From: Chthoniobacteraceae bacterium | GTDB taxonomy: Bacteria; Verrucomicrobiota; Verrucomicrobiia; Chthoniobacterales; Chthoniobacteraceae | Assembly: GCA_947471505.1 (NCBI GenBank) | Contig: CANIWM010000012.1 | Span: forward strand, 15,867-79,866 | Direction of reading: 5' to 3' | DNA: 64,000 nucleotides | In this document: positions 4,539-38,274 of the stretch, in pieces | How the letters are laid out: each line of letters begins with the position of its first letter | How positions within the stretch are numbered: the stretch's first letter is position 1 | The notes under the pieces: model-generated | Told to the model about the DNA's origin: nothing | Database searches by the model: none | The model's input: the letters and a program-made list of their open reading frames with translations, nothing else | Made by a program: the position numbers and the translations under genes

Positions 4539-4622
4539 GGAAAAGGGGCGACATGCAACTTCCCCGGCCCCACTTGCGCAAGCACAACATTGCGCGAGCT
4601 TGCCAGCCGGGAGAGCCCGCAT

Positions 4623-5141: not shown

Positions 5142-5154
5142 AACACCGAAGGGT

Positions 5155-17197: not shown

Positions 17198-17201
17198 CAG
17201 C

Positions 17202-18014: not shown

Positions 18015-18190
18015 TTAAAACACGGTCCAAATGCCGCGAAGCGGAAAGTAGCTCGCGAGTCCCATCGCGGCCCTATGACTCCCGCGAAGCGGCACTTCTT
18101 CATTCGTGAGGCTTCGCCGTCGCAAAACGCCGCGAAGGGACTCGCGAGCTACTCTCTTGGATCACGTTTTGATCACGCCGCCAACTGGCG
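17995..18190. mobile_element. MITE/REP-like palindromic element (~170 bp) flanked by exact 13-bp direct repeats CCGCCAACTGGCG
   Basis: Direct repeats sit at 17995-18007 (the last codons of the GT2 gene) and 18178-18190. The interior has imperfect terminal inverted repeats (GCGTGATTAAAACACG / CGTGTTTTGATCACG), a 16-bp internal inverted repeat (GTAGCTCGCGAGTCCC at 18048-18063 and GGGACTCGCGAGCTAC at 18138-18153) and two exact CCGCGAAGCGG mini-hairpins plus a related CCGCGAAGGG motif. Confidence 0.5.
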
Positions 18191-18212
18191 ACGGTGAGCC
18201 TCCATCGTGGGC

Positions 18213-18248
18213 AAAAAAAGAGCCGGAGCCCTTGCGGACACCGGCTCT
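18213..18248 (-). terminator. intrinsic terminator of the 18270..18788 gene
   Basis: On the minus strand, an 8-bp perfect stem (AGAGCCGG/CCGGCTCT) with a 14-nt loop is followed by T7 (plus-strand AAAAAAA at 18213-18219). Confidence 0.6.
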
Positions 18249-18269
18249 GAGATATGGATCGGAGAAAAA

Positions 18270-18788
18270 CTAATCCGCCTTTTTAGCAGGCTTCGCGTCT
18301 TCTTTCTTCGCGGGTTTAGCATCGTCCTTCTTTTCTGCTTTTGGGCCGAACTTCGTGATCTTCACCACTTCATATTCGGTGCCGTCTGCATTCTTCTTGG
18401 TGCGGAGGCCAGCGACGGTGTCGCCAGCCTTGATGTCCTCGAACTTCGCAGCAGCGTCACCGTTTTTGATCTCGGTGGTCGCCGTCACGATATGTTTCAC
18501 GAGTTTGCCTTCCTTAGTTTTCTGTGTGAACGACTTCCCAGCAGCATCGATCTCGTCGGCGCGGGCGTTCATGGGTTGAGGCTTGGCGGCCTTCGCGTCG
18601 TCTTTCTTCGCGTCAGCGGCAGGAGCAGCGGCAGGAGCGTCGTCCTTCTTTGCATCAGCGGCTGGAGCAGCAGGAGCGGCTGGCGCTGCGGCTGGTTTAG
18701 CGGCTTCTTTTTTCTTCGCTTGCGCGAATGCGGAAGGCCCGACTGAGAGAGCGAGGCCGAGTGTGAGACTGAACAGGATTTGTTTCAT
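18270..18788 (-). CDS. secreted low-complexity Ala/Pro/Lys-rich protein
   Basis: Clear signal peptide MKQILFSLTLGLALSVGPSAFAQA, followed by repeats (KKDDAPAAAPAADAKKDDAKAAKP), then a small globular region. Own terminator downstream. Confidence 0.65.
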   Translation of the reverse strand: MKQILFSLTLGLALSVGPSAFAQAKKKEAAKPAAAPAAPAAPAADAKKDDAPAAAPAADAKKDDAKAAKPQPMNARADEIDAAGKSFTQKTKEGKLVKHIVTATTEIKNGDAAAKFEDIKAGDTVAGLRTKKNADGTEYEVVKITKFGPKAEKKDDAKPAKKEDAKPAKKAD

Positions 18789-19222
18789 GGGTTTGTTTGT
18801 TTGTTGTTTTGTGAGGCGCGCCAGCAGGCCCGGAGAGGGCGCTAATCTCGCGCCCGTCCGCTCTAGTCCCCGGTTTTTGGTGGGTCAAGCGAGAATCATC
18901 ACCGCGCACCGCATTTTTCCGCGGGCGATTCTCAGGGTTGCCGCCGCAGCGCCCCGATCCGATCCACCATCCTGGCAACAGTTGTTATCACCCCCCATTT
19001 ACGCCGAAGGCGTTGGGGTTCGGAAGGCTGAACCCTCCGGGTAAGAATCACGCTCATTGAGCGAGATTGGAAATCTCGCCTCCTCTGCGCTCGATTGCGC
19101 GGGCTATCCACATACGGCGGCCCCTCTACTTCACGGCATTTGTCCACTTTACCCTCCCGCTCTCTGTTAGCCGGCCGTGGAACGTCCTTGTTCCACGGAG
19201 AAATGGGCTTTTTCTCTGATGG

Positions 19223-19255
19223 CATATACTCATTCCGTCACAGAATGAGTATATG
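19223..19255. promoter_or_regulatory. perfect 13-7-13 palindrome CATATACTCATTC-N7-GAATGAGTATATG (candidate operator)
   Basis: Read directly from the sequence. The half-site GAATGAGT(A/T)T is the core of the downstream direct-repeat array. Confidence 0.5.
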
Positions 19256-19537
19256 CGGGGGCGGAATCTGTTTAATCTGCGAGTGGATGGGTTTAGGGCA
19301 GGATGGAATCTGCTTTGGCTGCGGCAGGATGAGTTTAACCTGCGAGGGGATGAGTTTAGGGCGGGATGAAATCTGTTTTGGCTGCGACAGGATGAGTTTA
19401 GAATCCGACGGAATCCATTTAGCCGCCAATCGAATGAGTTTAGGAAACGAGGGAATGAATTACGGAGGGAAACTCATGGGTATATTTTGCAACGGAATGA
19501 ACTGCATTTCCGGCGGAATGGGTTGTAAAGTAGTGCG
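19256..19537. repeat. array of about 13 degenerate direct repeats with ~21-bp period (core GGATGAGTTTAGG / GAATGNNTTTA)
   Basis: Includes two 63-bp higher-order copies at about 90% identity (19277-19339 and 19340-19402), each made of three 21-bp subunits. Located in an ~890-bp intergenic region between divergent genes. Confidence 0.7.
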
Positions 19538-19608
19538 AATAGTAGCGGGGCCGTCTCGGCCCCGAGCGACACTGTGTGTCGCAGGGGGCGGGACGCACCC
19601 TCTACTTC
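19538..19608. repeat. GC-rich multi-hairpin module (AATAGTAGCGGGGCCGTCTCGGCCCC...), copy 1 of 2 in this window
   Basis: Contains the hairpin GGGGCCG-TCT-CGGCCCC and the palindrome GCGAC...GTCGC. Copy 2 at 43958-44043 shares 26 of 27 nt (one extra C in copy 2) over 43958-43984. Confidence 0.6.
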
Positions 19609-19678
19609 CGCGCATTATTTTACCGCTCACCGCGCGCCGAGCGTGCAACGCGCAACTTCTTCCGGTAGGAGGCGGGGC

Positions 19679-20641
19679 ATGAAACTCATCGCGTCCGTCT
19701 TTTTCGCCACGACTTGCCTCGCTACTGCGCTGGATGCGCCCAAGTTTGACCGTAATGGGGCAGGGGAGATCACGGTGGCGGCACCGGAGGGTGCGCACGT
19801 TCGCTATACGATTGATGGGTCTGCGCCGGGGGCGAAATCAGGACCGTATCTCGCGCCTATTCGGCTCGCGACGGGCCGGAAGGTGCAGGCGGTTTCTGTG
19901 AGCGCGGACCGGAAGACGGTGAGCGAGCCCGCTGTGCTGGAGGTCGCGCCTGCGCCGGATGCGAAGCCGCTCCCTTCGACGCTGGTGCCTTGCACGCAGG
20001 ACCGGGATTTCCCCACTTACGATTGGGCGATCCGCCATGCGCAGGTGACGGAACTTACGGCGAAGAAGAAGGCGTCGCTGGTGTTCATCGGCGATAGCAT
20101 CACGCAGATGTTCGGCGGCGAACCGCATGATCGCGGGCAGCCGGGGAAGGCGGTGTGGGAGAAATTCTACGGGGCGCGCAATGCGACGAACTTGGGCTTT
20201 GGCTACGACTACGTGGAGAACACGCTGTGGCGTCTCCAGCACGGCGAGCTGGACGGCGCAGCGGCGAAGGCGGTGGTGGTGAACATCGGGACGAACAACA
20301 TGGGCAAGAATTCGCCGGAGGAAATCTTCGAGGGCGTGAAGGCGGTGCTCGGCGAAGTGCGGCGCAGTCAGCCAGCGGCGAAGGTGCTGCTCCTCGGCAT
20401 CTACCCACGCGGCGCGAAACCCGACGCGACCCGCGAGAAGGTGGCGAAGACCAACGTGCTACTTGCGACGCTCGACGGGAAAGACGGCGTCATTTTCCAA
20501 GATGTGACGGCGAAGCTCTTGGAGCCGGATGGGAGTATCTCGAAGGAGATGATGGGCGACTTTCTGCACCCCACGGCGAAGGGCTATGAGGTCATTGCAG
20601 ACGCGATCGAGCCTACGCTGAAGAAGCTGCTGGGGGAGTAG
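19679..20641 (+). CDS. SGNH/GDSL hydrolase family protein with N-terminal chitobiase/hexosaminidase C-terminal-like (CHB_HEX_C) domain
   Basis: Signal peptide MKLIASVFFATTCLATA, CHB_HEX_C-like stretch (HVRYTIDGSAP), GDSxT block (VFIGDSITQ) and a C-terminal DFLHPT block. Confidence 0.8.
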   Translation: MKLIASVFFATTCLATALDAPKFDRNGAGEITVAAPEGAHVRYTIDGSAPGAKSGPYLAPIRLATGRKVQAVSVSADRKTVSEPAVLEVAPAPDAKPLPSTLVPCTQDRDFPTYDWAIRHAQVTELTAKKKASLVFIGDSITQMFGGEPHDRGQPGKAVWEKFYGARNATNLGFGYDYVENTLWRLQHGELDGAAAKAVVVNIGTNNMGKNSPEEIFEGVKAVLGEVRRSQPAAKVLLLGIYPRGAKPDATREKVAKTNVLLATLDGKDGVIFQDVTAKLLEPDGSISKEMMGDFLHPTAKGYEVIADAIEPTLKKLLGE

Positions 20642-20644
20642 GGC

Positions 20645-20764
20645 GGGGCATTTGTGATTGGTGATTGGTGAATGGTGATTTGTCGCAAGCGCGCTTTTCG
20701 AGGGGCGTGAGAACCCGCTTGCGACTAATCACAAATCACAAATCACCAATCACGCGCACGCCCC
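20645..20764. repeat. 120-bp imperfect palindrome containing tandem GTGATTG-type heptamers; fills the intergenic space between convergent genes
   Basis: Left arm GGGGCATTTGTGATTGGTGATTGGTGAATGGTGATTTGTCGCAAGCG, 24-nt spacer, right arm CGCTTGCGACTAATCACAAATCACAAATCACCAATCACGCGCACGCCCC. Each arm carries four heptamer repeats. The element spans from stop codon to stop codon. Confidence 0.55.
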
Positions 20765-21048
20765 TACTTCGCCTGATCGGTCGAGGCGGTCGCGCCGGGC
20801 TCGGGCTTGGCGAGGAGCTGGCCGAGGACTTGGTAGAGGCGGCGCAGACCGCCGCCGGTCATGGCGATGCGGGTGTGGATGGGGAGTGTGGCGAAGCCTT
20901 GGCCTTGGTCGGGGATGAGGCCGCTGGAGAAGTCGAGATAGACTTCTTCTTGGCCGGTGGTGAGGACGACTTGGTTCGCGTAGCGCGCGGTCATGTCTTC
21001 GTATTTGACTTGGATTTTCGTCTGCTTTTTGTCGGATGGAGTTGCCAT
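20764..21048 (-). CDS. DUF3467-like small protein
   Basis: Motif KIQVKYEDMTARYANQVVLTTGQEEVYLDF is typical of DUF3467. Start chosen at MATPSDKKQTK. Confidence 0.55.
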   Translation of the reverse strand: MATPSDKKQTKIQVKYEDMTARYANQVVLTTGQEEVYLDFSSGLIPDQGQGFATLPIHTRIAMTGGGLRRLYQVLGQLLAKPEPGATASTDQAK

Positions 21049-21147
21049 GGGCGGAGGGATAAGCGGGGCGGCGGGAGTTTGCAAATGATCCGTGTTGAGC
21101 ATTTGCGATTGAAGAAAGTGCGGTTCTCGTGCGTCGTGTGTGGACCA

Positions 21148-21804
21148 ATGACGCCCGGTCGAAATATCCTGCTTTTTTTAATGTGCCTGCTCGCTCCGGT
21201 CGCGGCACAGCAGCCGAGGCCCGGCGAGGCGCGGACTTCGGCTTCGACGAACGATAGGGAGATCAATCCTCCGTTTGGCCTCGAATGGGCGGAGGACTCG
21301 AAGCGTGTGGAGCTGAAGATCGCTGCGGCGAAGCTGACGATTAAAGAGCGGCGGAAGGTGGATGGCCGCTGGGCGCTTACGGTCGTCGGCTTTAAGAAGA
21401 GCGACGCGGTGACGAAGCCGCCCGCGTTTCAGCAAGTGCTCTTTTATTTTAACGGGGGGAAGCTCACCAAAGACCGGGACGCGGATGGGAAGGCGTCCGA
21501 GCGAATCATCGGCGGAGTGCTCGTGGAGGTGGAGCTCCAGTATCAAGAGGAAGGCTGGCGCGAGCCGGACTACAACATCTGTCTCGGCGAGAAGCGCCAG
21601 ATGCTTGAGCGGAATTACGGCCCCGGTCAGCAGATGATCCGCGAGACGACGAACCTCCCCGACGGGAAGGGCACGCAGACGATGGTGGGCTACAAGTGGA
21701 ACAAGAATAACACTGCCGTGGACCTCGTGTATTTCACCGCCGAGGCGAAGGAGGAGAAGCACGTCTTCCACACGCTGAGCCTGCATTACAAGAAGTCCGG
21801 CTAA
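21148..21804 (+). CDS. hypothetical secreted protein
   Basis: Start MTPGRNILLFLMCLLAPVAAQQ (signal peptide). The upstream part of the ORF-track entry (20665-21147) overlaps the convergent gene and the palindrome and is not coding. Confidence 0.5.
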   Translation: MTPGRNILLFLMCLLAPVAAQQPRPGEARTSASTNDREINPPFGLEWAEDSKRVELKIAAAKLTIKERRKVDGRWALTVVGFKKSDAVTKPPAFQQVLFYFNGGKLTKDRDADGKASERIIGGVLVEVELQYQEEGWREPDYNICLGEKRQMLERNYGPGQQMIRETTNLPDGKGTQTMVGYKWNKNNTAVDLVYFTAEAKEEKHVFHTLSLHYKKSG

Positions 21805-21840
21805 GACGAGCGCTCCTTCGGGCTTAGTCCTACGTCACGT

Positions 21841-24192
21841 ATGAAAAACTCCATCCTTTGCACGTCGTTTGCCCTTTCCACTTTGGCCTTCGCGGGTTCG
21901 CCGAATAATTCACTCATCACGCCCGGCGCGGGTCAGCGCGGGACGGAGGTGGAGGTCGTCTTGAGCGGCGCTCGCCTGATGGATGCGCGGTCGCTCCTCT
22001 TTAATGAGCCCGGCATCGAAGTCGTGAGCGTGGCGGAGGCGGAGGCGGGGAAGTTTAAGGCGAAGCTGAAAATCGCCGCCGACGCACGGCTCGGCGAATA
22101 CGTCTTCCGCGCGGTGACAAGCTCCGGCATCGCGGATACGCGGCTCTTTTATGTAACGCCATACCCCGTGCAGAAGGAGGCGGATGAGGATAAGGCGGAC
22201 CCGTATAAAGTGCAGGCGGTGCCGCTTGGCGTGACGATCTACGGCTCGACGCCGGGGGAGGACCAGGACCATTTCGAGGTCGAGGTGAAGAAGGGCCAGC
22301 GGCTCTCGGCGGAGGTGATCGGCATCCGGCTTTCCACCCAGCAGCAGTATGATGCCTACATGACCATCACGAAGGCCGACGGCACGACGTTGGCGGAGAT
22401 GGACGATTGCGCGTTCACCCGGCAAGACCCGGCACTGAGCATCATCGCGCCGGAGGATGGGAAGTATCGCGTGATGATCAAAGAGACGACAAACAGCGGG
22501 AGCGGGCCGTGCAATTACCTCCTGCACATCGGCACGCATCCGCGCCCGTATGTCATCTTTCCCGGCGGCGGACAGGCGGGCACGGAGGTGAAAGTGCAGA
22601 TGCTTGGCGACGCAAGCGGGCCCTTTGAGCAGACGGTAAAGCTCCCTGCCGCGCCCGACACGCGCCTCGAAGTGATCGCGCAAAAAGACGGCCTCGCAGC
22701 GCCGCAGTCGAACTTCATGCGCGTATCCGCTTTTGGTAATGTGCTGGAAGCCGAGCCGAACAACGAAATCGCCAAGGCCACCGCCGCTCCGGGGCCGCTG
22801 CCGCTGGCGTTTAACGGAATCATTCAGGAAAAAGGCGACGTTGATTTCTTCAAGTTCACCGCCACGAAGGGCGCAGTGTTCGATTTCAAAGTTCACGCTC
22901 GTTCACTGCGCTCGCCGCTCGATTCCGTGCTCTCCATTCACGATGCGAAAGGCGGACAGCTCGCGGCGAACGACGACCAAGGAGGCCCCGATAGCGTTCA
23001 ACGCTGGACGGTGCCAGCCGATGGCGACTACTTCGTCGCCGTGAAGGATCAGCTTGGCCGTGGCGGCCCGCTCTTTACCTATCGCGTGGAGGTTTCGCCG
23101 CCGCAGGCGGGGCTCTTCGGCTACCTGCCCGACATGGTTATTAACAGCTCGCAAGAGCGCCGCGCCGTGCCAGTGCCCAAGGGCAACCGCTACTCCACGC
23201 TCGTCCGTGTGCGCCGAGCGGACGTGGGCGGCGACGTCATCGTAGAGCCTAAAGACCTCCCCGCAGGTGTGACTGTCGCGACGACGAATATGGACAAAAC
23301 CGTGGACACAATCCCGATGGTCTTCGAGGCCAAAGCGGACGCACCCACGGTGCAAAAGACCTTCACCCTTTTGCCCAAACTCGCCGAGCCGCCAGCCGGC
23401 TCGAACATCGTCTCCAAAGTGGACCATCGTGTGGAAGTCACCGAGAACGGCAACCAACGCTCTTATTACGGAGTAGATGAAGACACGCTCGCCATCGCGG
23501 TGACGGACGAAGTCCCCGTCACCCTAGAGCTTCACCAGCCCAAAGTGCCGCTACTCCAATCCGGCTCCATGAATCTGAACGTCGCCGTGAACCGCAAAGC
23601 AGGAGCCGACGGCAAACCGCTCTTCAACGGCCCCGTGCAAGTCCAGCTCCTTTACACCCCGCCGGGCGTCGGACAGCCGGGCGTCGTCACCATCCCCGAA
23701 GGACAAAACCAAGGTGCGATCACCATCAGCGGTCAAGGCAACGCACCGATTTCGAAATGGCAACTCGCGGTGAACGGCTCCGTGGACCTCGGCAAAGGCG
23801 CGACGTGGATCAGCACCGGCCTCGTGCTCATGGAAATCGCACCGCCCTTCGTAAACGGCACGCTCGTCCGCACCTACATTGACCAAGGCAGCGAGGGCGG
23901 CATGACGATGAAGCTCGACCAAAAGACCCCCTTTGAAGGCAAAGCGAAAGTCGCCCTGCTCGGCCTGCCCCAAGGCGTCACCGCCGAGGAGAAGGAAATC
24001 ACCAAAGACGACAAAGAAGTGCGCTTCGTCCTCAAAGCGGGGCCCGACGCCCAAGTCGGCCAGCACAAGACCGTCATCGCCTCGTTCACCTTGATAAAAG
24101 ACGGCGAGCCCATGACGAACACCATCGCAGGCGGCGGCATCCTCCGCGTGGACAAAGCAAGCGCCGCCCCGAAAGTCGCCGAAGCGAAGTAG
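21841..24192 (+). CDS. large secreted protein with pre-peptidase C-terminal (PPC)-like beta-sandwich domains
   Basis: Signal peptide MKNSILCTSFALSTLAFAG and repeated PPC-like blocks (EPNNEIAKATA...GDVDFFKF...; DQDHFEVEVKKGQRL). 783 aa. Confidence 0.65.
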   Translation: MKNSILCTSFALSTLAFAGSPNNSLITPGAGQRGTEVEVVLSGARLMDARSLLFNEPGIEVVSVAEAEAGKFKAKLKIAADARLGEYVFRAVTSSGIADTRLFYVTPYPVQKEADEDKADPYKVQAVPLGVTIYGSTPGEDQDHFEVEVKKGQRLSAEVIGIRLSTQQQYDAYMTITKADGTTLAEMDDCAFTRQDPALSIIAPEDGKYRVMIKETTNSGSGPCNYLLHIGTHPRPYVIFPGGGQAGTEVKVQMLGDASGPFEQTVKLPAAPDTRLEVIAQKDGLAAPQSNFMRVSAFGNVLEAEPNNEIAKATAAPGPLPLAFNGIIQEKGDVDFFKFTATKGAVFDFKVHARSLRSPLDSVLSIHDAKGGQLAANDDQGGPDSVQRWTVPADGDYFVAVKDQLGRGGPLFTYRVEVSPPQAGLFGYLPDMVINSSQERRAVPVPKGNRYSTLVRVRRADVGGDVIVEPKDLPAGVTVATTNMDKTVDTIPMVFEAKADAPTVQKTFTLLPKLAEPPAGSNIVSKVDHRVEVTENGNQRSYYGVDEDTLAIAVTDEVPVTLELHQPKVPLLQSGSMNLNVAVNRKAGADGKPLFNGPVQVQLLYTPPGVGQPGVVTIPEGQNQGAITISGQGNAPISKWQLAVNGSVDLGKGATWISTGLVLMEIAPPFVNGTLVRTYIDQGSEGGMTMKLDQKTPFEGKAKVALLGLPQGVTAEEKEITKDDKEVRFVLKAGPDAQVGQHKTVIASFTLIKDGEPMTNTIAGGGILRVDKASAAPKVAEAK

Positions 24193-24198
24193 GGCACT

Positions 24199-24891
24199 TC
24201 ATTTCCCCGTGACACGCCGGTAAAACCGAATCCCCTCAATCCTGCTCCCGTACTCCTTCAGCGGGTAAATGCCGCGTCCTTCCGCAGTGCCGGGGTCGCA
24301 CGTCAGATAGTCGTAGCCGTCCTTCCCACAGATGACCACGAAGTGAGTGCCGTCGGGCGATTTCAGCTTCGCGATGACGGGATTGCCTGATCGCAGATTC
24401 AGGTCAATCAGCATGTAGCTCGGCAAATCCTCGTAAGCCTTTTCGATCTTCCCCTCGCTGAGTTCCGCCGCCTTTTCCCACACGATCCAGCCATTTCCCA
24501 CGTAGCCATCATGTTCCGTGAGATACTGGTTCAGCCGCGCCGGGTCGGTGTCGAATCCGTAAGCCGCGAACACCATCGCCGCACTAGCCACCGCGCAGCC
24601 TTCCGCGCCGAGTGTGGCTTCGGTTTTGCCGAGTTTATCCGTGCGCCATCGCGCATCACTCTGGCGAAAGATGGGCACTTTCAGCTCCAGTCGAGGCTGC
24701 TGATAAAGCCCGCCGCTCGCTTCGCACGGAGCGACTGCGCGCCACTCTGCATCCCAGCGTTTCCAGCGAAACCACCCAAACACGATGCTCCCCGCTATGG
24801 TGATGAAAATCACGGCGAGCGTGATGCGCAGGCTCTTCTGCGCGGGTCGGCGATTCGGTGTAGGCTCTAGCATTTCTCTCACTCTGAACAC
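24199..24891 (-). CDS. membrane-anchored C39-like cysteine peptidase domain protein (Peptidase_C39_2/BtrH-like)
   Basis: N-terminal TM helix (ITLAVIFITIAGSIVFGWF), then QSDARW...GAEGCAVASAAMVFAAYG (catalytic Cys context) and THFVVICG (His). Last gene of the five-gene operon; overlaps the upstream gene by 13 nt. Confidence 0.6.
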   Translation of the reverse strand: MFRVREMLEPTPNRRPAQKSLRITLAVIFITIAGSIVFGWFRWKRWDAEWRAVAPCEASGGLYQQPRLELKVPIFRQSDARWRTDKLGKTEATLGAEGCAVASAAMVFAAYGFDTDPARLNQYLTEHDGYVGNGWIVWEKAAELSEGKIEKAYEDLPSYMLIDLNLRSGNPVIAKLKSPDGTHFVVICGKDGYDYLTCDPGTAEGRGIYPLKEYGSRIEGIRFYRRVTGK

Positions 24892-25829
24892 CGGAGCAGA
24901 ACCTTGCCAGCCCGCTTCGACTGCTGCGCGTGCGCGAGAGCCTGCGCGATTTCCGTGAGCGGATAGGTCGCCTCTATCGGTGTCGAGATGATGCCCTTCC
25001 GCAGAAGCTCGAATAGCTCATCGAAAAGCGCCGCGCGCTGCTCCGCCGAAGCCCGCGCATACCACCGCGTCACCCAAAAACCTCGCCACACGATGTCGTT
25101 GAAAATGAGCAGCCCATTGGGAACCTTGAGCGGCTGCCGAGCCATCGCGCCGTAAGTCACGATGGTCCCACCATCCGAGAGCCGCCCCGCCAGTCGCACC
25201 GCGCTATCGCCACCGACCGCATTTAGCGCCAGCCGCACCGGGAGCTCGCCCGGCTCATCCAAAAACACCGCATCCGCGCCCTCCGCCAACAGCTCGTCCA
25301 CCAACTCCGCGCGCCGCACCACATTCGCAGATCGCCAGCCGTAATGCCGACACATCTGGATGACACACCGCCCCACCGCCGAGTTCGCCGCATTTTGCAA
25401 AACCCATTCGTTCGGCTCCAGCCGCACAAACTCCCGCAACATGCACAGCGCAGTCGCCGGGTTGATCCGCAGCATCGCCGCCTGCGCGAGCGGAACATCG
25501 TCTGGCACGCGCACCAGCTCCGCCGCACAAACATTCCCCGCCTCGCGCCACGTGCCGAAACGATGCGGCAAGAGTACGCGCGTCCCCGCGTCGAATCCCT
25601 CGCCTGATTCTTCGACGACGCCTACACCCTCCACGCCCGGGACGCCGCGCAACTCAGGCCGCACGGGATATTTCCCCTCCAGCACATTGATGTCCGCAGG
25701 ATTGATCGGCGCAAAGAGCACGCGCACGCGCACGTCGCCCGGCGCAGGTGGTGCAAGCTCGACCTCGCAGCAGCGTGCGACTGCCGCTGGTTCACCGTGT
25801 TCGGAAAGGAGAATCGCTTTAGTTTTCAT
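24879..25829 (-). CDS. MDR-family zinc-type/quinone oxidoreductase (enoyl reductase-like)
   Basis: GroES-like N-terminal domain plus Rossmann NAD(P)-binding fold (LQNAANSAVGRCVIQ). Its start overlaps the stop of the giant upstream gene (TGATG). Confidence 0.75.
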   Translation of the reverse strand: MKTKAILLSEHGEPAAVARCCEVELAPPAPGDVRVRVLFAPINPADINVLEGKYPVRPELRGVPGVEGVGVVEESGEGFDAGTRVLLPHRFGTWREAGNVCAAELVRVPDDVPLAQAAMLRINPATALCMLREFVRLEPNEWVLQNAANSAVGRCVIQMCRHYGWRSANVVRRAELVDELLAEGADAVFLDEPGELPVRLALNAVGGDSAVRLAGRLSDGGTIVTYGAMARQPLKVPNGLLIFNDIVWRGFWVTRWYARASAEQRAALFDELFELLRKGIISTPIEATYPLTEIAQALAHAQQSKRAGKVLLRCSE

Positions 25830-28800
25830 CAGTCTTTCGAGGTCTGTTTTGCTTTGTCGGCTTCAATGAGCTCCCAAATCTGCCGGAGCGTCTCGGTAGA
25901 AATCGACACCTCCCGCAGTGCAGCACCCATATCCTCATTGGACGCTTTGGGCGGAGGCGGTGAGGATGGTGGCGTCATGAAAAGGGTGATCGGCTGCGCG
26001 AGGATGGGTGCGGGTTTGCTGAGAGCTTTTGCAAAGACACCGCCGAGTTCGCCGAGCGAGTCTTGCAGCGCGGTGAGTCGCTCGACAACCTGCACCATTG
26101 GGTCTTTGCCGTCGGCCCCCCGGAAGAGCTGGTTCTTGCGGAACGTCTTTTTGATTTCCTCCCAGCGTGCGGATTCCTCGGGCGTGATGGTGCCGGTGAG
26201 TTCCTTGAACTTCAGCAAGTTTGCTTCGGTGCCGGTGGTGAGCGTCTGCGCTTCGTTGCGGTAGTAAGTTTGCAGCAGCGATTCGAGTTCTGCATCGTTC
26301 ATCACGGGCGAGATTTTCTCCGCGAGTCGGCCCATGTTGCGGTAGCTGCCTTGCAGCTTGAATGCGGGCTCCGTGCGGAATGCGTCGGACTGCGCCGCGC
26401 TGCGGATGTATTCCTCGTTCACTCGCAGCACGACATCACGGGCGCGGATGAGCTTCTTCATCACGCCGAGAAATTCCGCCTGCTCGACAGGCGACCAATT
26501 GCTCTCAAAGTCCGCGCCTTCCGTGCTGCCAGTCTCGGCGATCTTGAGCACGGCGAGGATGTCTTGTTGCGAACGCGCAGCGAGCCGGGCGAGTGTAGGG
26601 TTCGATCCCGCTGCGTTTTCGAGGTAGCTGGATTTAAAAGCATCCGCGTGCGCTCCGACGACATCGCCGAGATTGTACGTGTCAGCACGATTCGCGAGCA
26701 TGTCGGGGATTTTGAACTTCTCGCCGCTCTCGGTGTACGGGTTTCCGGCCATCACCACGATGACCTTTTTGCCCCGCAAATCCCACGTCTTCGACTTGCC
26801 GCGCCACACGCCCTCGATGCGCCGCGAGCCGTCGCACAGCGAGATGAACTTCTGCAAAAACTCCGCGCTGAGATGCTGGATGTCGTCGAGACAGACCATC
26901 ACGTTGTCGCCCATCTCGAACGCGAGCCCGAGCTTCTCCATCTCATCGCGAGCCGCAGCATTCGGAGCCTCTGTCGGGTCGAGCGAAGTGACGCTGTGCC
27001 CAATCGCAGGACCGTTGATCTTCATAAACACGATGCCGAGCCTGCTAGCGACATACTCGACGAGCGTAGTCTTCCCATAACCCGGTGGCGAAATGAGCAG
27101 CAGCATGCCCATGCGGTCCGTGCGTTTCGCGTCGCCCGCCGCGCCGATTTGCTTCGCGAGATTGTCGCCCACGAGCGGCAGATACGCGGAGTCAATGAGC
27201 CGGTTGCGGATGAAACTCGTGAGCACCTTCGGTTTAAACCCATCGAGCTTCAGCCGCTCCCGCGCCGCCTCCAGCAGCGTGCGCTTTAGCGAAACGAAGC
27301 GTGTGTAAAGCGGGACGACGTTCGTTTCGTGGCAGCGCATCCGTGCGGAGAAATCGAGGTAGTCGAGCCGAAGCACGCCATTCGAGATGCGTGAGTGCGA
27401 GCCATTCATCCCGGCAAGTTCGCGCACCGCCGAGGAATGGATCGTCGCTGCAACCGTCGAGTTGCGCAGGGTAAGCGCCGCCGCCTCATCCAAAAAAAGA
27501 TGCTCACCCGCATGAGCACGCAGCCAATTCCGAATGAGAGAAAACTCAGCGTGCATGTCGGCGGATACAGCCTTGCGAGCGTCTTTGAAAGCACCCGCGC
27601 CAGCCCGCTCAACGAGGTGCGCGTGGAAGCTATCAACCAGCGTCACGGCCTCCGGTGCAGCCGGGAAAACTCCATCGCCGGAGAGGACGTGGAAAAGAAA
27701 CTCAGCCGCCGGTCCATCAAGTCCATTCTGTCCATCTCGTCCATAAACTGGATGGACGGCATGGACGTTATGGACGATCTCCCCCAACAGCTCCGCCGCC
27801 GGAGCCTGCTGCTCAAAGAACCGCCCCATCGCTCCAAAGCCTTTGAGCTTCGCCGAGAGCAGTGCCTTCGCCTCGCCGTCTGGCAGAGCCGCCCAAGCAA
27901 GCACCGCCTGCGTGCGAGCCTGCGTATCGTAGCGAAGCAGTCCGAGCGTGCGCCGCATTTCCACGACCGCTTCCACGATCTTTGCAGCGTCCAGATCGTG
28001 GACGCCCTTAATGTAGCCCTCGCCAAGCCGAGTCGCGGCGAACTCGGTTGTGGTGCAGGCGACCTCGCCTGCATCTGTCCTGACCGGCGACTCGCCGGAA
28101 CTTCGGGTGGGTCGCCCGTGCGACTGCTGCAGGCGAGTCGCCTGCGCCACTACCAGCCACGCCAGCCACTCGGCGCGATAAACCTCCGCAGTCTCTGAAA
28201 CGCTCTCCAAGCTCCACACAGCCTTCGTTTCCGCAAAGGCTGCATCCTCGATAGGCTCGAAGAAATTCGTCCCGGTGATGTGCAGGCACATCGCATCGCC
28301 GCGCTGAACGATGGTGAGGTCCAGCTCCTGCGTGTTGACCAAAAACTGATGCCGCCCGAGCTGAATCGCGCCGCTGCCTCCGGCAAATAGATCGCGCCGG
28401 TCCTTGAATTGCCGCACCGCATCTTCACGGATGGTTTTCAGTCGGCTGCCGAGGTCGTCGGCCTTCGTGGAATCGCCGAGCGCGACCAACTGCGCGGTAA
28501 GGTCGCGCACTTTCTCCACCATCATATCGCTGGCGAAGTAGGCGTTGATTTCATCCAGCCCCGGCAGGCTATCCGCACGGTGCTTGATGCCCTTCAGGAT
28601 GCGCTCCGCCGCTGACATCAAGCCATTCGCACGACGATTGCGGGCTTCGATGAGTTCGAGTTTACGAGACTCAAAAGCCCCGGCAAAAGCGGTGCGCTTG
28701 TCCGCTAGTTCGCCGACAAATTCCTCGAAGTCCGCAAACCGCGCTTCGAGTTCTTCGACCTGAACCATCAGCTTGTTTAGGAACTCATCGCACTTCTCCG

Positions 28801-30910
28801 GCGTCGCGCTGAGGTCGAGATAGTTTGCGAGCGCCTGATCCAGCAGCCGCTGCTGGGACGCAAATTCCGCCACCGCTTCCGTGCCGCGCAAATCGCGGAT
28901 GCGCTGCCGCAGCCCCGACCTCGCCTGATTCAGCGTGGCGTAAATGCCGGAGACGTCTTCGATTATCAGCGTCGTCTCCGTGGCGTCGGAGATTTTGAGG
29001 TTGCCGACCGTCTCCACTAGCAAATCGAGGTCTTTGGCTGCGGCGGCGATTTCCTCGTCGAGCTTCTGCGCATCCGCGACCTTCGGCATCTTCGGAACCG
29101 TTTCGCGCAGGATGGAAACCTTGGCCCGCAGTGGGTCGAGCGACTGCGGCGCGAGGAGAAATTGCACCGTGCGCTCAGCCAGCGCGGTGCTCGTGGCGGC
29201 GACCTCCTGCTCTGTTTTATCCACGAGTGCAGCGTCCACGTAGCGCAGTTCCCTGAGCGAAATCAGCTCGCCTCGCGCTGACCGTAGCGCCGCCAGCTTC
29301 TCTACAAAGTGCCCGATTTGATCAAAAGCCTGCGTCTGCAGCGCCCGCAAAATCGCTGTCGCTTTTTCCACCACGCGCTGCGTCTCGGTCGCGGTGTTGA
29401 GCTTGATCGCCGTGACCTTGTCAAACTCCGCCAGCGCCGCTGCCGCCGTCTCTTTAATCGCAGCCAGCGGTTCGCGCAGCGCAAACGCTTCGGCACGGTC
29501 CAGCCAGAAATACGTGTCGAGGATGTCCGTAGTTCGCTTCACCAAATCGAGGTAGAGCCCAGCGTAGCTGTCGTCCTTGCCGAGCAGCGTCAATATTTCA
29601 CCGCACTCGGCCATTGCTCGCACGACGGTCGGATTTCCGAGTTTAAAAAGGTAGCTGTCGTTCTTCGTCGGCGGTTGCCAATCCGCGCCGACGAAAGGCG
29701 TCTGCCAAATCTGCACGACGTGGTGTCTCTGCGGCTCCGGTCCAGCGCGGAAGACCGCCAACTCGCCGCCCTCGAACAGCGAAAAACCGTGACAGATGAG
29801 CGGCGTATCGCACTGCCGGGCGATGACGTTGTAGCCGAACAGCACGTAAGTCCCGCTGTCGCGCTCGTAGAACACGAACAGCGTGTCTTCGCCGTTGGGC
29901 GAGGCGATGCGCTTGTGGAAAACGAGCCCTTCCAGCGCCGTCTCGAACTCCTTGTGCTCGCCGCTTTGCAAGTAGTAGCCGCGTGGGTGGATGATGCCGT
30001 GACCGTCCGGCAGCAACACGCACGCCTCCTCAAGCGAATCAATGCGCAGCACCTCGCGGAGCTTTTCGTTGAAGACCAAATAGCGCGTCTTTTTTTCCTG
30101 ATACGGGCGGATGCGCAGCAGGATCAAATTGCCCAGCGAGGCGTGGAAAATCTCCGCGTCATCAAGCGTTTGGTCGCGCTGCTCGACGGGCTCGGAGTAA
30201 ATGCCAGCGCCGCTCGCCGTGTTATCCTCCACTTTCACCGTGAGGTCGCCGCCGACGCACTCGACGAACACCCGGTCCTCGATGCTGATGTGCGGATGCT
30301 GCCCCGCGCGGTGCTGCTCGCGCGTCGCGCGCTTCCACTCAAATTCGTGCTGCGGCGGGTAGAGATATTCGTGGTCGAACCGATTGCCGAGATACCGCAC
30401 CGGCGAGCCATCGCAAAGCCACTTACACGTCTTCACGTCCGTCACCGTCTTGCCCACGCGAAATTCCATGAACATGTGCGGCCCACGCACCGAGAGCTTC
30501 GAGAGCGCCGTGCCTTTGTAATAGCGGTAGAGCGACTTGAAATCCGCCTCAAATTGAGCATCCGCCAGCTCATCCAGCGGAAGTGCGGAAAAGGCGCGGT
30601 CCTTGTACTGGTAAAGTGCGAAGACATCCGCAAGCTGCGTCTCACTGCGCAGCCCAAGTTGCACATTGTAGCCAAAAACAAACCGTCCACCGCCGATGTG
30701 GCGCATGTCGCGAGGCGTGCAACTATTCTCCGTCGTGAGCCGCTCCGTAGCCACTAACGCTGTCGGTATCGCGCCAAACACATCCTGTCGCGAGGCGTTC
30801 AATTTCCCGAGTCGTTCGCGCAGCTCGGAGCCGTGCGAGTTCAGCCGGGCCCGAAGGATTTCGTAGGTGCCTTGCTCGAGTTTCTGCGGCGGAGCGTCGT
30901 TATCAGCCAT
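25829..30910 (-). CDS. giant (1693 aa) protein with a single C-terminal AAA+ ATPase module (AAA_5 / MoxR-McrB-dynein-like); N-terminal ~1300 aa uncharacterised
   Basis: Walker A LLLISPPGYGKTTLVEYVA, Walker B VMVCLDDIQH, sensor-1-like VVMAGNPYTESGEKFKIPDMLANRADTYNL. Long coiled-coil-prone segments. One uninterrupted ORF with consistent codon usage. Confidence 0.8.
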   Translation of the reverse strand: MADNDAPPQKLEQGTYEILRARLNSHGSELRERLGKLNASRQDVFGAIPTALVATERLTTENSCTPRDMRHIGGGRFVFGYNVQLGLRSETQLADVFALYQYKDRAFSALPLDELADAQFEADFKSLYRYYKGTALSKLSVRGPHMFMEFRVGKTVTDVKTCKWLCDGSPVRYLGNRFDHEYLYPPQHEFEWKRATREQHRAGQHPHISIEDRVFVECVGGDLTVKVEDNTASGAGIYSEPVEQRDQTLDDAEIFHASLGNLILLRIRPYQEKKTRYLVFNEKLREVLRIDSLEEACVLLPDGHGIIHPRGYYLQSGEHKEFETALEGLVFHKRIASPNGEDTLFVFYERDSGTYVLFGYNVIARQCDTPLICHGFSLFEGGELAVFRAGPEPQRHHVVQIWQTPFVGADWQPPTKNDSYLFKLGNPTVVRAMAECGEILTLLGKDDSYAGLYLDLVKRTTDILDTYFWLDRAEAFALREPLAAIKETAAAALAEFDKVTAIKLNTATETQRVVEKATAILRALQTQAFDQIGHFVEKLAALRSARGELISLRELRYVDAALVDKTEQEVAATSTALAERTVQFLLAPQSLDPLRAKVSILRETVPKMPKVADAQKLDEEIAAAAKDLDLLVETVGNLKISDATETTLIIEDVSGIYATLNQARSGLRQRIRDLRGTEAVAEFASQQRLLDQALANYLDLSATPEKCDEFLNKLMVQVEELEARFADFEEFVGELADKRTAFAGAFESRKLELIEARNRRANGLMSAAERILKGIKHRADSLPGLDEINAYFASDMMVEKVRDLTAQLVALGDSTKADDLGSRLKTIREDAVRQFKDRRDLFAGGSGAIQLGRHQFLVNTQELDLTIVQRGDAMCLHITGTNFFEPIEDAAFAETKAVWSLESVSETAEVYRAEWLAWLVVAQATRLQQSHGRPTRSSGESPVRTDAGEVACTTTEFAATRLGEGYIKGVHDLDAAKIVEAVVEMRRTLGLLRYDTQARTQAVLAWAALPDGEAKALLSAKLKGFGAMGRFFEQQAPAAELLGEIVHNVHAVHPVYGRDGQNGLDGPAAEFLFHVLSGDGVFPAAPEAVTLVDSFHAHLVERAGAGAFKDARKAVSADMHAEFSLIRNWLRAHAGEHLFLDEAAALTLRNSTVAATIHSSAVRELAGMNGSHSRISNGVLRLDYLDFSARMRCHETNVVPLYTRFVSLKRTLLEAARERLKLDGFKPKVLTSFIRNRLIDSAYLPLVGDNLAKQIGAAGDAKRTDRMGMLLLISPPGYGKTTLVEYVASRLGIVFMKINGPAIGHSVTSLDPTEAPNAAARDEMEKLGLAFEMGDNVMVCLDDIQHLSAEFLQKFISLCDGSRRIEGVWRGKSKTWDLRGKKVIVVMAGNPYTESGEKFKIPDMLANRADTYNLGDVVGAHADAFKSSYLENAAGSNPTLARLAARSQQDILAVLKIAETGSTEGADFESNWSPVEQAEFLGVMKKLIRARDVVLRVNEEYIRSAAQSDAFRTEPAFKLQGSYRNMGRLAEKISPVMNDAELESLLQTYYRNEAQTLTTGTEANLLKFKELTGTITPEESARWEEIKKTFRKNQLFRGADGKDPMVQVVERLTALQDSLGELGGVFAKALSKPAPILAQPITLFMTPPSSPPPPKASNEDMGAALREVSISTETLRQIWELIEADKAKQTSKD

Positions 30911-30964: not shown

Positions 30965-33037
30965 TTAGGCCTTTTTCCCCGCCGCCGTAAGGGGTTTCTC
31001 CGCGAGGCCGAGGCGGTGGGCTTGGCCGAGCAGCATGGTGAGCAAGCCTTTGGTTTTACCATCTTCGGCGATGTCGGCCATTTTGCTGAGGGCGGCCGCT
31101 ACGCTGAGGTTCTTCACATCTTCGCTCGTGAGGCCAAATTGACTTACGAACCCTTTGAGCTGCGTGTGGAAATACTCGGGGTCGCTGTTGAAGAATGTCT
31201 CTTTTATGTCGGTGAGAGTGGCGCTGCTGCTTACGAGTTTGTCGAACGATTTGCCGGCGGTGACTGCGCCAGTGATTCGGTCGAGGAAGGCCAGGTCGCC
31301 GCCGACGATGTCGATCTTCGCGTGCTTGAGGGCTTCGCTGACGACGGTGGCTTGGCTGCTCGCGATGTCGCCTTGGGTCTTGATTCCGGCAAGCTCAATG
31401 TCGCGCTCCTTGTTGAGGCGGAGTTTGAATTCCTCGTGCTCTTTGCCGACGGAATCGAACAGCTTCATCGCGGCGGCTTTTTTGGTAATTCCCTCAGCTT
31501 CGGCACTTGCTTTGAGCTGCATGACTTCCGCTTCGGCGGTGCCTTGATCGCGGACGGCGCCAGCTTTGGCTTGCTGGACTTGCGCTTCGGCAAGTCCGGC
31601 AGCAGCAGCGGTCGCGGTTTCGCCAGCGGCAAGGGAGATTTTCGCTGCGGACATCTTACAGGCTGATTGCTCTTCGGCGTCCGCGAGGATCAGCATTTCT
31701 TTGGATTTGCGGTCGGCGGCTTCGCGGGAAGCATCGGCGCGGGTGACGGTGGTCACGCGGTCTTGCTCGGCTCGCAGTTCAGCGGCCTTCTTCGCGGCCT
31801 CCGCTCCTTTGATGTCCTTGATGAGCACCTGCTCGGCTTCTTGCTCGGCGGCGGTGATGGCGACCTTCTTTGCACGGTCGGCAGTGGCGAAAGCCTCGGT
31901 GTCCTTAATACGCTGTTGCTCGACGACGACGGTTTTCTCCACTTCGAGACGTTGGCGGATCACGTCTTGGATCGCTTTCTTCTCTGTCTCGACGGCCTTC
32001 TCTTTATCGATTTGTGCTAGGGTCACGATGCGCTCGCGTTCGGTGACTTCGATTTGCCGGTCCCTCTCCACGCGCTCTTTCTCCACGGCGTCGGTGCGCT
32101 CTCGGTTTCGGGACGCGACGATTATTTGGCGGTTCTTGTTTTCCTCGGCGATTTGCAGTTCTTCCTCCACGGCGATGCGGGCCTGTTCGCCTTTGAGTCG
32201 GCCTTCTTCTTGTACTTTTTTCGACTCTGCATCTTCCCGGGCGGTGATGCTTGCGATCTCGCGCTTCTGCTTTTGCTCGGCTTCGGCGAGTTGCTTCTGC
32301 ATTTCCAAAATAGCCTCGCGGCCCTCCACGTTTTGCTTGGTGATTGTCTTCTCGCGCTCGTTGTCGATCTTGTTGGAGAGCACCTTTTGTGTGGCCGTTA
32401 GCTCGGTGATTTTCTTGATGCCTTCGGAGTCCAGAATGTTGTCGGGGTTAAGCAAAGACAGCGGCGTCTGTTCCAGATAATCAATCGCCACATCGTCGAG
32501 CACGAAGCCGTTCAAGTCCGTGCCGACGGTTTTCAAAATGCCCTCCTTCAGTTTGTCGCGGCTGTTGTACAGCTCGACGAAGTGGAACTGCCGCCCGACC
32601 GTTTTCAGCCCTTCGGAAAACTTTGCGTCGAACAATTCGATGATCGCCACCTGCGATGAAGCACGCTCACAGCCGACGGACTGTGCGACCTTTAGCACGT
32701 CTTCGGGCGTTTTATTTACTCGGACAAAGAACGCCACTTTGATGTCGGCGCGCATGTTATCCATACAGATGAGGCCGTTTTTTCCCTGCCGGTCGATCTC
32801 CACGCGTTTGACGGAAATATCTATCGTCTGGCAGCGGTGGATGACGGGAAAGACGACCATTCCTGAAAAGGAAACCTTCGTTCCGCCGACGCCGTTGCGG
32901 ACGAGCGCCTGACCTTGGTCCACCTTGCGGAAGCAGGTGAGAACGGTGAATAAGCCGCCCGCGACGATGAGGACGAGGGCGATGACTGAGACGTAAGCGA
33001 CGCTCTCTCCGAGCGACGCTGCAAGTAGTGTAATCAT
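30965..33037 (-). CDS. flotillin family protein (SPFH/band 7 domain, YqiK-like) with long coiled-coil C-terminus
   Basis: N-terminal TM helix, SPFH domain (QGQALVRNGVGGTKV...), then a ~300-aa Glu/Ala/Lys-rich coiled coil and a flotillin C-terminal region. 690 aa. Confidence 0.85.
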   Translation of the reverse strand: MITLLAASLGESVAYVSVIALVLIVAGGLFTVLTCFRKVDQGQALVRNGVGGTKVSFSGMVVFPVIHRCQTIDISVKRVEIDRQGKNGLICMDNMRADIKVAFFVRVNKTPEDVLKVAQSVGCERASSQVAIIELFDAKFSEGLKTVGRQFHFVELYNSRDKLKEGILKTVGTDLNGFVLDDVAIDYLEQTPLSLLNPDNILDSEGIKKITELTATQKVLSNKIDNEREKTITKQNVEGREAILEMQKQLAEAEQKQKREIASITAREDAESKKVQEEGRLKGEQARIAVEEELQIAEENKNRQIIVASRNRERTDAVEKERVERDRQIEVTERERIVTLAQIDKEKAVETEKKAIQDVIRQRLEVEKTVVVEQQRIKDTEAFATADRAKKVAITAAEQEAEQVLIKDIKGAEAAKKAAELRAEQDRVTTVTRADASREAADRKSKEMLILADAEEQSACKMSAAKISLAAGETATAAAAGLAEAQVQQAKAGAVRDQGTAEAEVMQLKASAEAEGITKKAAAMKLFDSVGKEHEEFKLRLNKERDIELAGIKTQGDIASSQATVVSEALKHAKIDIVGGDLAFLDRITGAVTAGKSFDKLVSSSATLTDIKETFFNSDPEYFHTQLKGFVSQFGLTSEDVKNLSVAAALSKMADIAEDGKTKGLLTMLLGQAHRLGLAEKPLTAAGKKA

Positions 33038-33729
33038 GATTGTGGTAGTGGATTGGCTGTGATGAAGAAGATGCGTTTGTCCCCGTCCTCGCGTACGATT
33101 ACGGCGAGGTCGCCTTTTGTGAGCACGGCATCGTTGAGCGTGCGGACGTTGATCAAAAGCGAAGCGCCGTTTGTGGAAATCTCCGCCTGACCAAACTCCG
33201 GCGTGGCCTCCATCGAGACGATGCGGCAGTGCTGGCCGGTGACTTCTACTTTCTCATCATACTGCTTGTTGAGTAGTCGGAAGAGCGGCTTCAGCGGCAT
33301 CGTCGCGTAGCGGGTAATTACGGCGGAGATGCACACATTTATTGCCAGAAAGAAGGCGGTCAAAATCACGGAGCCTCCTGTCCAATAAGCATTGGCGAAG
33401 ATGCCAAAAGCCCACATCGCCAAGATGAGGACGCTCAAGACGACCATCACGGGCACGTCGCCGAGGTTGACGAATTTCAGCACATTACCGTACCACGATC
33501 CGCTGTCCGAGTGGTGCCCGTGGTGATGGCCTTCGACGTTGTGGTGCATTGTGTCCACATCGACTTCGTGGTCAATGTGCGCGTCGTGGCTGACATCGAG
33601 GTCTGCATCCGGGTGCGGGCCACCGAGAGCACCCAACGCGACGAGTAACCAATAAAGCATCACGAGTACGAGCATCACGGTGAAGGGCAGGTTCACTAGA
33701 CGAAAAGATTCGTGCAGCAGCTCGTTCAT
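33034..33729 (-). CDS. NfeD/YqiJ-like membrane protein (TM helices plus C-terminal OB-fold) with His-rich loop
   Basis: Start MNELLHESF. Two or more TM helices and a C-terminal beta-barrel segment (GQAEISTNGASLLINVRTLNDAVLTKGDLAVIV). Stop overlaps the flotillin start (ATGA), the canonical NfeD-flotillin pairing. Confidence 0.65.
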   Translation of the reverse strand: MNELLHESFRLVNLPFTVMLVLVMLYWLLVALGALGGPHPDADLDVSHDAHIDHEVDVDTMHHNVEGHHHGHHSDSGSWYGNVLKFVNLGDVPVMVVLSVLILAMWAFGIFANAYWTGGSVILTAFFLAINVCISAVITRYATMPLKPLFRLLNKQYDEKVEVTGQHCRIVSMEATPEFGQAEISTNGASLLINVRTLNDAVLTKGDLAVIVREDGDKRIFFITANPLPQS

Positions 33730-37612: not shown

Positions 37613-38274
37613 GCAGGGCCGCCGCGCCGTTGTCCAGCCATGCGGCGGGAAAACGAACTTCCATGCCAGCGGCGCCCATTATTCGATGGCCCATACGATT
37701 CCGCTTGTAGCTGTGTGCGCGAGGACGATGATTCGCGTTGCCAAAGTCGCGTTTCTTCCACAAGGCGCGACACGGGGGACCCAATTGAGGGTGCGCAGGT
37801 CCAAACTGCCACCAGGGGCGCAGGTAGCCAGCCAAATGGCTGCCCGGTGACTTCCTTCACCGAGCCCGTCAGCTAACTCCGTCGGTATAGGGAAGGTGTC
37901 CTAGGGACGCCGTCCGCGGCACTCGCTGCGTACGGGGTCAACCGATGCCTGCAACATCATATTGCTTACTGGCATCGGCGGAAAAATACGCCGGCGGTGT
38001 CCGTTCGCGCACAGACACATACTACATACAGAAAATGAGACATCATCGTCGTGGCCTGCTTGCCGCAGGCTTCATCATCGCCGCATCCACCGCCGACACC
38101 GTTTGGCTTGCATGGGCACAACCTCAAATCGCTACCGGCCTCGCGCTGGATCAGGTCAACGGCGGAGCGCCTGCGTGGCGCGAGCTTCTCGCGTGGCAGG
38201 CGACTCATCAATGGCCGCACTTTGTTGCGCAGGCCGTTGTCGCTGCCACTATTGCGTGGTGGATTCGTCCTATC

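Follow-up and report, generated by a model that had tools for sequence, protein, structure and literature searches.

Two bacterial assemblies join an SPFH scaffold to a partner, an AAA+ machine in FtsH-HflK/C and an NfeD-family membrane protein in QmcA-YbbJ. To these we liken two pairings in a locus within a 64,000-nucleotide stretch of contig CANIWM010000012.1 from a Chthoniobacteraceae bacterium (assembly GCA_947471505.1; the whole stretch is called the window below): that of a flotillin-like protein with a giant AAA+ ATPase, whose gene is the subject of this study, and that of the same flotillin-like protein with a YqiJ-like protein. The first likeness has limits, since FtsH is a membrane-anchored protease of the classical AAA clade, whereas the window ATPase is soluble, lacks a protease domain and belongs to another AAA+ clade. 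The closest described system is an operon found computationally by Ravi et al. (mSystems 2024, PMC11237479), in which a "Betapropeller+Coiled-coil+AAA-ATPase" protein is encoded with a Band-7/flotillin protein and a YqiJ/YuaF protein, with or without a CesT/Tir-PspA dyad and sometimes with PLD; the abbreviated three-gene form is widespread, and the authors propose a role in sub-membrane dynamics. That work gives no structure, AAA+ clade assignment or experiment. The window encodes the same three proteins in the same order and with the same domain strings, and represents the abbreviated form: the CesT/Tir-PspA dyad and the occasional PLD are all missing, and the cassette has gained genes for an oxidoreductase and a C39-like peptidase on its downstream side.

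We propose that the giant protein serves as the ATPase in a conserved membrane module of three genes and that it remodels a flotillin/NfeD assembly in envelope maintenance, a reading that we place slightly on the probable side. The order of the module is a YqiJ/NfeD-like protein with three transmembrane segments, then a long flotillin-like SPFH scaffold, then the giant cytosolic AAA+ protein. To assess how constant this order is, 82 related loci were fetched, homologues of the window neighbours were located by tblastn, and all open reading frames (ORFs) were clustered. Of the 63 loci whose upstream DNA exceeded 3 kb, 60 had an SPFH homologue, of roughly 695 residues, upstream on the strand of the ATPase gene, and of the 61 with more than 4.5 kb, 53 had a YqiJ_N homologue; the synteny spans Verrucomicrobiota, Planctomycetota, Bacteroidota, Desulfobacterota, Kiritimatiellota, Omnitrophota and Clostridia. 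The distance matrices of the three genes correlated (r = 0.77, 0.72 and 0.71), with a Mantel p ≤ 0.001 for ATPase-SPFH, the sole pair that was permutation-tested; mirror-tree correlation of this kind denotes co-inheritance only, not contact. The ATPase is therefore in near-obligate synteny, and is co-inherited, with flotillin-like SPFH and YqiJ/NfeD-like proteins. Because the gene nearly always directly follows a flotillin-like scaffold and its YqiJ/NfeD partner, a motor acting on a flotillin scaffold is likelier than the "DNA repair ATPase" of the current annotation.

The preliminary description of the locus, made from the sequence alone, had placed the gene between a flotillin and an oxidoreductase. 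Both neighbours were borne out, the upstream one as a divergent SPFH protein and the downstream one as a quinone-oxidoreductase-type MDR protein, but treating the flotillin as mere neighbourhood undersold what turns out to be the key conserved partner. In the flotillin-like protein, an N-terminal transmembrane segment, an SPFH domain and a long coil rich in Glu and Ala precede the C-terminal domain. The window protein itself has no Pfam match. Since 6 of 46 homologues (41-72% identical) match Band_7, with a best E of 7e-14, and the family profile matches the coil of the SPFH protein QmcA, we assign it to a divergent SPFH/flotillin type. Its single N-terminal transmembrane segment is followed by basic residues, so the bulk of the protein should be cytoplasmic. 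In seven loci, mostly of Bacteroidota (L008, L021, L024, L027, L034, L061 and L074), one to four small unrelated ORFs, including lipoprotein-like, transposase-like and endonuclease-like ones, lie between the flotillin and ATPase genes; the gap evidently tolerates insertions. The YqiJ-like ORF probably starts at an internal ATG at 33729, giving 231 residues (homologues have 203-227), and its stop overlaps the flotillin start (ATGA). Between its first and second transmembrane segments, residues 38-77 form a His- and Asp-rich loop (…HPDADLDVSHDAHIDHEVDVDTMHHNVEGHHHGHHSD…), a candidate metal-binding segment.

The ATPase itself was called from the ORF at 25829-30910, and its coordinates and length of 1693 residues were given correctly in the preliminary description, as was the presence of a single P-loop with no second ATPase, VWA domain or nuclease; Pfam found none of these three in the protein. 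Pfam recognised one ATPase module at residues 1270-1395 (AAA, 30.8 bits against a cutoff of 21.2; AAA_5, 24.5 bits against 22). The same search overturned the statements that this was the only recognisable module, that about 1300 residues were unassigned and that the N-terminus carried no nameable family signature: DUF3686 (PF12458) covers residues 29-468 (29507-30826) over profile positions 1-448 of 448 with E = 7.8e-176, and DUF7902 (PF25472) covers residues 590-672 (28895-29143), within a helical region, with E = 5.4e-23. As both are domains of unknown function, the N-terminal region is catalogued, yet without an assigned function. About 900 residues (469-589, 673-1269 and 1396-1693) have no Pfam family, and lenient segment-wise scans likewise gave none for residues 841-1235 and 1420-1693. 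No transmembrane segment was predicted.

The family is large. A search of 5.8 billion proteins, in which 8000 candidates were scored, returned 4511 homologues; among the matches listed, 120 of 120 were full length with an identical Pfam string. An exhaustive HMMER search with the first 1200 residues, which excludes the ATPase, gave 1337 representatives after clustering at 50%, of which 422 reached E ≤ 1e-30; most have 1600-1900 residues and align along the entire query, at identities as low as 26%. With 4511 full-length homologues and identity falling to about 26%, we regard the ORF as a real gene. In a scan of one genome per species, at least 595 genomes carried a family member. The protein is a typical member of the catalogued DUF3686/DUF7902 family, whose operon comparative genomics had already described, and the core of the preliminary call was correct: one AAA_5-like ATPase module within a very large protein, for which no experimental study was found.

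Where the sources name these homologues, the names are "DNA repair ATPase", "AAA family ATPase" and "MoxR-like ATPase". The first, together with the Pfam wording for DUF3686 ("ATPase involved in DNA repair"), would suit a repair ATPase of the SMC/SbcC/RecN or RuvB type, or a restriction-system GTPase like McrB, and weak RuvB matches point the same way (E ~1e-3 over 36 residues, P-loop only). The matches do not extend further. In the PDB, neither the protein by itself nor a profile of 72 sequences matched anything beyond the 36-residue P-loop of p97 and RuvB, and NCBIfam gave only sub-threshold P-loop matches to RuvB and CDC48; the RuvB equivalogs scored 22.9 bits against a cutoff of 282 and 20.7 against 299. 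The sole P-loop (residues 1274-1282) sits within a contiguous AAA+ fold and the N-terminus is predicted to be a propeller, which leaves no split ABC head as in SMC, SbcC or RecN. McrC, a DNA-binding N-domain and a restriction context are all absent, and McrB ranks structurally below many unrelated AAA+ proteins, so that of the likenesses first suggested for the core, those to MoxR and dynein AAA_5 proteins held and that to McrB fell away. We consider a repair or restriction function exceedingly improbable.

To place the protein structurally, two AlphaFold2 models were built on the 72-sequence alignment, covering residues 1-850 (predicted local distance difference test, pLDDT, 87.8) and 841-1693 (pLDDT 88.0, predicted template modelling score 0.78). 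The models suggest a five-part build: a propeller head, a spectrin-like rod, a family-specific adaptor, a single AAA+ module of the MoxR/CbbQ/NorQ type and a helical C-terminal domain (Table 1). The helical, coiled-coil-prone stretches noted earlier near residues 617 and 723 fall within the confidently predicted all-helical segment 420-841. Between the rod and the AAA+ core, residues 845-1160 are predicted to form a small β unit and then a helical domain, followed by a β-hairpin and a long helix to residue 1236. Mean identity to the query across 71 homologues was highest in the AAA core (74%), followed by the propeller (51%), the rod (43%), the middle helical domain (27%) and the tail (12%). 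In Foldseek, 800-900 columns of residues 1-850 aligned with IFT-A and clathrin heavy chain (probability 0.93-0.99, template modelling scores 0.13-0.19); the echo of a propeller and helical coat is weak. One metagenomic member of 1950 residues (P0087) has additional HEAT-repeat Pfam matches.

Such an echo could be read to mean that the protein is a structural element of a sub-membrane coat or cytoskeleton, which would assemble on flotillin patches under the control of a slow AAA+ nucleotide cycle and not act by mechanical remodelling. The very low scores of the coat-protein matches speak against this, and because conservation peaks in the AAA core, where the catalytic set is complete, an active enzyme is favoured; we regard a coat as distinctly unlikely. 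That catalytic set comprises K1280, D1342/D1343, N1390, R1408 and R1524, all invariant in 72 sequences, and the positions first given for SPPGYGKTT (residue 1274), CLDDIQH (1340) and MAGNPYTESGEKFKIPDMLANRADTYNL (1387) were confirmed. Walker B has the form hhhhDD instead of hhhhDE, and since D1342-D1343-I-Q-H is invariant in the 72 homologues, the position of the catalytic Glu is always Asp in this family. In MoxR proteins the motif is "DEINR", of which D-D-I-Q-H looks to be a conservative variant. A predicted β-hairpin (strands 1364-1369 and 1372-1377) directly precedes the sensor-1 strand. The nearest structures to the AAA+ fold were CbbQ (17.1), NorQ (16.4), dynein (15.5) and midasin (14.8), with ClpA next at 13.4, placing the modelled core in the MoxR/AAA_5 clade. 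The pattern of invariance marks a MoxR-type active site under strong constraint.

The likeness to these relatives does not extend to their architecture. MoxR proteins (CbbQ, NorQ, RavA), of ~270-500 residues, normally act with a VWA partner; the window ATPase lacks a VWA/MIDAS partner, has Asp-Asp in Walker B, shows no evident helix-2 insert in its model, and fuses ~1230 residues of propeller, rod and adaptor in cis with ~270 residues of extra C-terminal helices. Midasin/Rea1 and dynein are eukaryotic and concatenate six AAA modules per chain, with a MIDAS or microtubule-binding domain as head, whereas the window ATPase has a single module and a propeller head. MoxR, NorQ and midasin are remodelling chaperones, and CbbQ is described in its structure match as a Rubisco activase; NorQ serves NorBC, and RavA serves respiratory complexes. 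The window ATPase could likewise be a MoxR-type maturation or insertion chaperone for another membrane complex, for instance a metalloenzyme or respiratory one, with flotillin and YqiJ serving merely as platform. That its nearest structural relatives, CbbQ and NorQ, are remodelling and maturation chaperones favours the idea, as does the His-rich loop of the YqiJ-like protein, which could bind metal, and SPFH proteins are widely seen as scaffolds for membrane-complex assembly (PMC11237479). Opposed to it, no client gene is conserved beside the cassette, the flanks being heterogeneous; the recurrent extras are only PspA, CesT and PLD, and there is no VWA or MIDAS adaptor. On balance we judge it unlikely.

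PspA, which belongs to the ESCRT-III superfamily, is the commonest extra neighbour of the cassette, accounting as PspA_IM30 for 11 of 142 sampled flanking ORFs, and Vps4 with ESCRT-III/PspA gives a parallel for an AAA+ protein dedicated to a membrane-bound polymer. A CesT/Tir-PspA dyad occurs in about 10-15 related loci. In several Bacteroidota loci a divergent HTH_3 regulator, CesT_Tir_1 (E = 1.6e-56) and PspA_IM30 (E = 2e-41) stand ahead of the cassette, in some of them in the order of a divergent HTH(-protease) gene, then CesT_Tir_1, PspA, YqiJ, SPFH and the ATPase. The Dokdonia context listed in the supplementary table of PMC11237479, which begins "<-cHTH+Protease CesT_Tir->", is reproduced gene for gene by our Flavobacteriia/Cytophagia relatives (HTH-protease, CesT_Tir, PspA, YqiJ, Band-7/flotillin, ATPase). 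Besides these, a few loci have PLDc_2, or DUF4178 with DUF350, downstream of the cassette.

The size and multidomain build of the NTPase, with its repeat-type head, could also suggest an anti-phage or conflict system, in which it would sense infection, with the membrane proteins or PLD as effector. The family is distributed patchily over the seven groups named above, at 43-52% identity over ~1600 residues, which suggests horizontal transfer; the PLD gene of a few loci matches the PADLOC model DrmC, and one copy lies on the megaplasmid pQBR103. Against a defence role, the three proteins had no significant PADLOC match, only marginal P-loop ones (IetA, E = 0.0022; mad8, E = 0.068). Scanning the 142 flanking ORFs with PADLOC and Pfam gave few and isolated defence matches, mostly the generic HTH that is the operon's own regulator, and the idea of a defence island was rejected; the neighbours are mostly housekeeping genes, with PspA at the top. 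By tblastn no homologue was found in phage genomes, and the gene occurs in just 13 of 72,556 plasmid records. A defence role is thus very unlikely in our estimate, and it lacks support, as do DNA repair and McrBC restriction.

How, then, would the module work? The AAA+ modules would assemble as a ring from which the rods project the propellers outward as binding heads. The propellers may take hold of the cytoplasmic flotillin/NfeD assembly, or of a client that it holds, and ATP hydrolysis would remodel the assembly by assembling, opening, disassembling or extracting, to the benefit of envelope maintenance alongside PspA. We infer this soluble remodelling ring from the family, the synteny and co-inheritance, the PspA link and the constrained MoxR-type site, and it fits three precedents, SPFH-FtsH, SPFH-NfeD and the CbbQ/NorQ/midasin group of MoxR chaperones. 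A bolder version, which we put forward tentatively and think rather doubtful, is that the family supplies the energy so far missing from the picture of bacterial flotillin microdomains: a single-ring MoxR/midasin-like hexamer whose six spectrin-like arms end in propellers, which would hold on to the flotillin/NfeD cage and use ATP to open it, take it apart or load it.

Several observations weigh against a flotillin-remodelling motor. The Asp in place of Glu in Walker B might mean slow hydrolysis or switch-like behaviour, not a processive motor. The MoxR helix-2 insert is not evident, a 14-residue loop (residues 1304-1317) lying between β2 and α2 as judged only by DSSP of the AlphaFold2 model, and a VWA/MIDAS partner is absent both in the protein and among the recurrent neighbours listed (25 of 138 flank Pfam families). 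The SPFH gene is not immediately upstream in 3 loci; the 64-kb window has no PspA, CesT/Tir or PLD gene; and synteny and co-inheritance fit a looser functional link too. A literature search found no experimental work on any family member, in keeping with what had been supposed for this protein, and gave SPFH with MoxR only as an unrelated co-mention in one reference list.

Table 1. Position of the ATPase gene, its predicted parts and motifs, and the adjoining genes in the window.
Feature	Residues	Window position	Strand	Remark
ATPase gene, DUF3686-DUF7902-AAA+ protein	1-1693	25829..30910	-	cytosolic; NCBI name "DNA repair ATPase"
N-terminal helix	15-45	30776..30868	-	AlphaFold2 model
Divergent β-propeller-like domain	46-410	29681..30775	-	~28 strands; core of DUF3686
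Helical rod	420-841	28388..29653	-	consecutive spectrin-, plectin-, talin-like bundles; includes DUF7902
Part between helical rod and AAA+ core		27221..28378	-	
AAA+ α/β core, MoxR/AAA_5-like	1237-1420	26651..27202	-	
Walker A SPPGYGKTT	1274-1282	27065..27091	-	K1280 invariant
Walker B MVCLDDIQH	1338-1346	26873..26899	-	D1342-D1343-I-Q-H invariant
Predicted pre-sensor-1 β-hairpin	1364-1377	26780..26821	-	AlphaFold2 secondary structure
Sensor-1/arginine-finger block MAGNPYTESGEKFKIPDMLANRADTYNL	1387-1414	26669..26752	-	N1390, R1408 invariant
Invariant QGSYRNM	1520-1526	26333-26353	-	R1524, putative sensor-2 arginine
Lid and C-terminal helical domain	1421-1631	26018..26650	-	
Pro-rich linker and short terminal helix	1632-1693	25832..26017	-	poorly conserved
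Partner 1, divergent SPFH/flotillin-like protein	690 in all	30965..33037	-	directly upstream of ATPase
Partner 2, YqiJ/YuaF-family (NfeD-like) protein, three transmembrane segments		33034..33729	-	YqiJ_N, E = 1.5e-7
Quinone-oxidoreductase-type MDR gene		24879-25829	-	start on last base of ATPase stop (TGATG)
C39-like peptidase ORF		24199-24891	-	overlaps oxidoreductase end

The oxidoreductase and C39-like peptidase genes look co-transcribed with the cassette in the window genome; since tblastn found them in 0 of the 82 related loci, they are incidental to the system. Two overlapping ORFs farther along the window, in different frames (37945-38949 and 38739-39329, both on the plus strand), look like one frameshift-split gene; a Glu/Ala/Lys-rich coil in the second half, seen by eye, had suggested an SPFH-like protein, and the suggestion was dropped as neither half had a Pfam match. 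Two related loci have informative surroundings. On the 425-kb megaplasmid pQBR103 of P. fluorescens SBW25 (L083, 84437-97641), where the SPFH, YqiJ and ATPase arrangement is present, the cassette directly follows a YjfI-PspA-rhomboid-DUF2491-DUF350-DUF1190-glutathionylspermidine synthase operon, an array that unites both PspA-linked operon types of PMC11237479. In Verrucomicrobiota bacterium sgz303538 (L001), PspA_IM30 and a 559-residue classical AAA ATPase are encoded divergently just upstream of the cassette (3151-5750, minus strand), and an RtcR-Ro60(vWA)-RtcB-RtcA RNA-repair cluster lies downstream (16444-23389); the vWA_Ro60 of this cluster is the sole VWA-type neighbour seen. Further members were found in Vibrio, Proteus, Halomonas, Photobacterium, Pseudomonas (plasmid pQBR103), Streptomyces, Nonomuraea, Streptacidiphilus and Deinococcus. 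The EukProt proteome of the dinoflagellate Durusdinium trenchii (P0101) also contains a full-length copy that shares 53% identity with the window protein; bacterial contamination or recent transfer is the probable source.

The window locus is an ordinary member of a catalogued family. Relative to PMC11237479 and the databases searched, what is new is the placement of the motor with MoxR/CbbQ/NorQ and dynein, the invariant Asp-Asp Walker B, a domain map with confident models, the quantified synteny and the finding that neither the "DNA repair" label, a propagated annotation, nor a defence role has support. The family offers an experimental handle on the function of bacterial flotillins and on the opening and turnover of SPFH cages, in an invariant active site that can be mutated, and its carriers include the culturable genera Vibrio, Proteus, Flavobacterium, Hymenobacter and Streptomyces as well as Pseudomonas with pQBR103. 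If the family does power flotillin microdomains, it would give SPFH assemblies their first dedicated remodelling motor, working in the same envelope-repair pathway as PspA.

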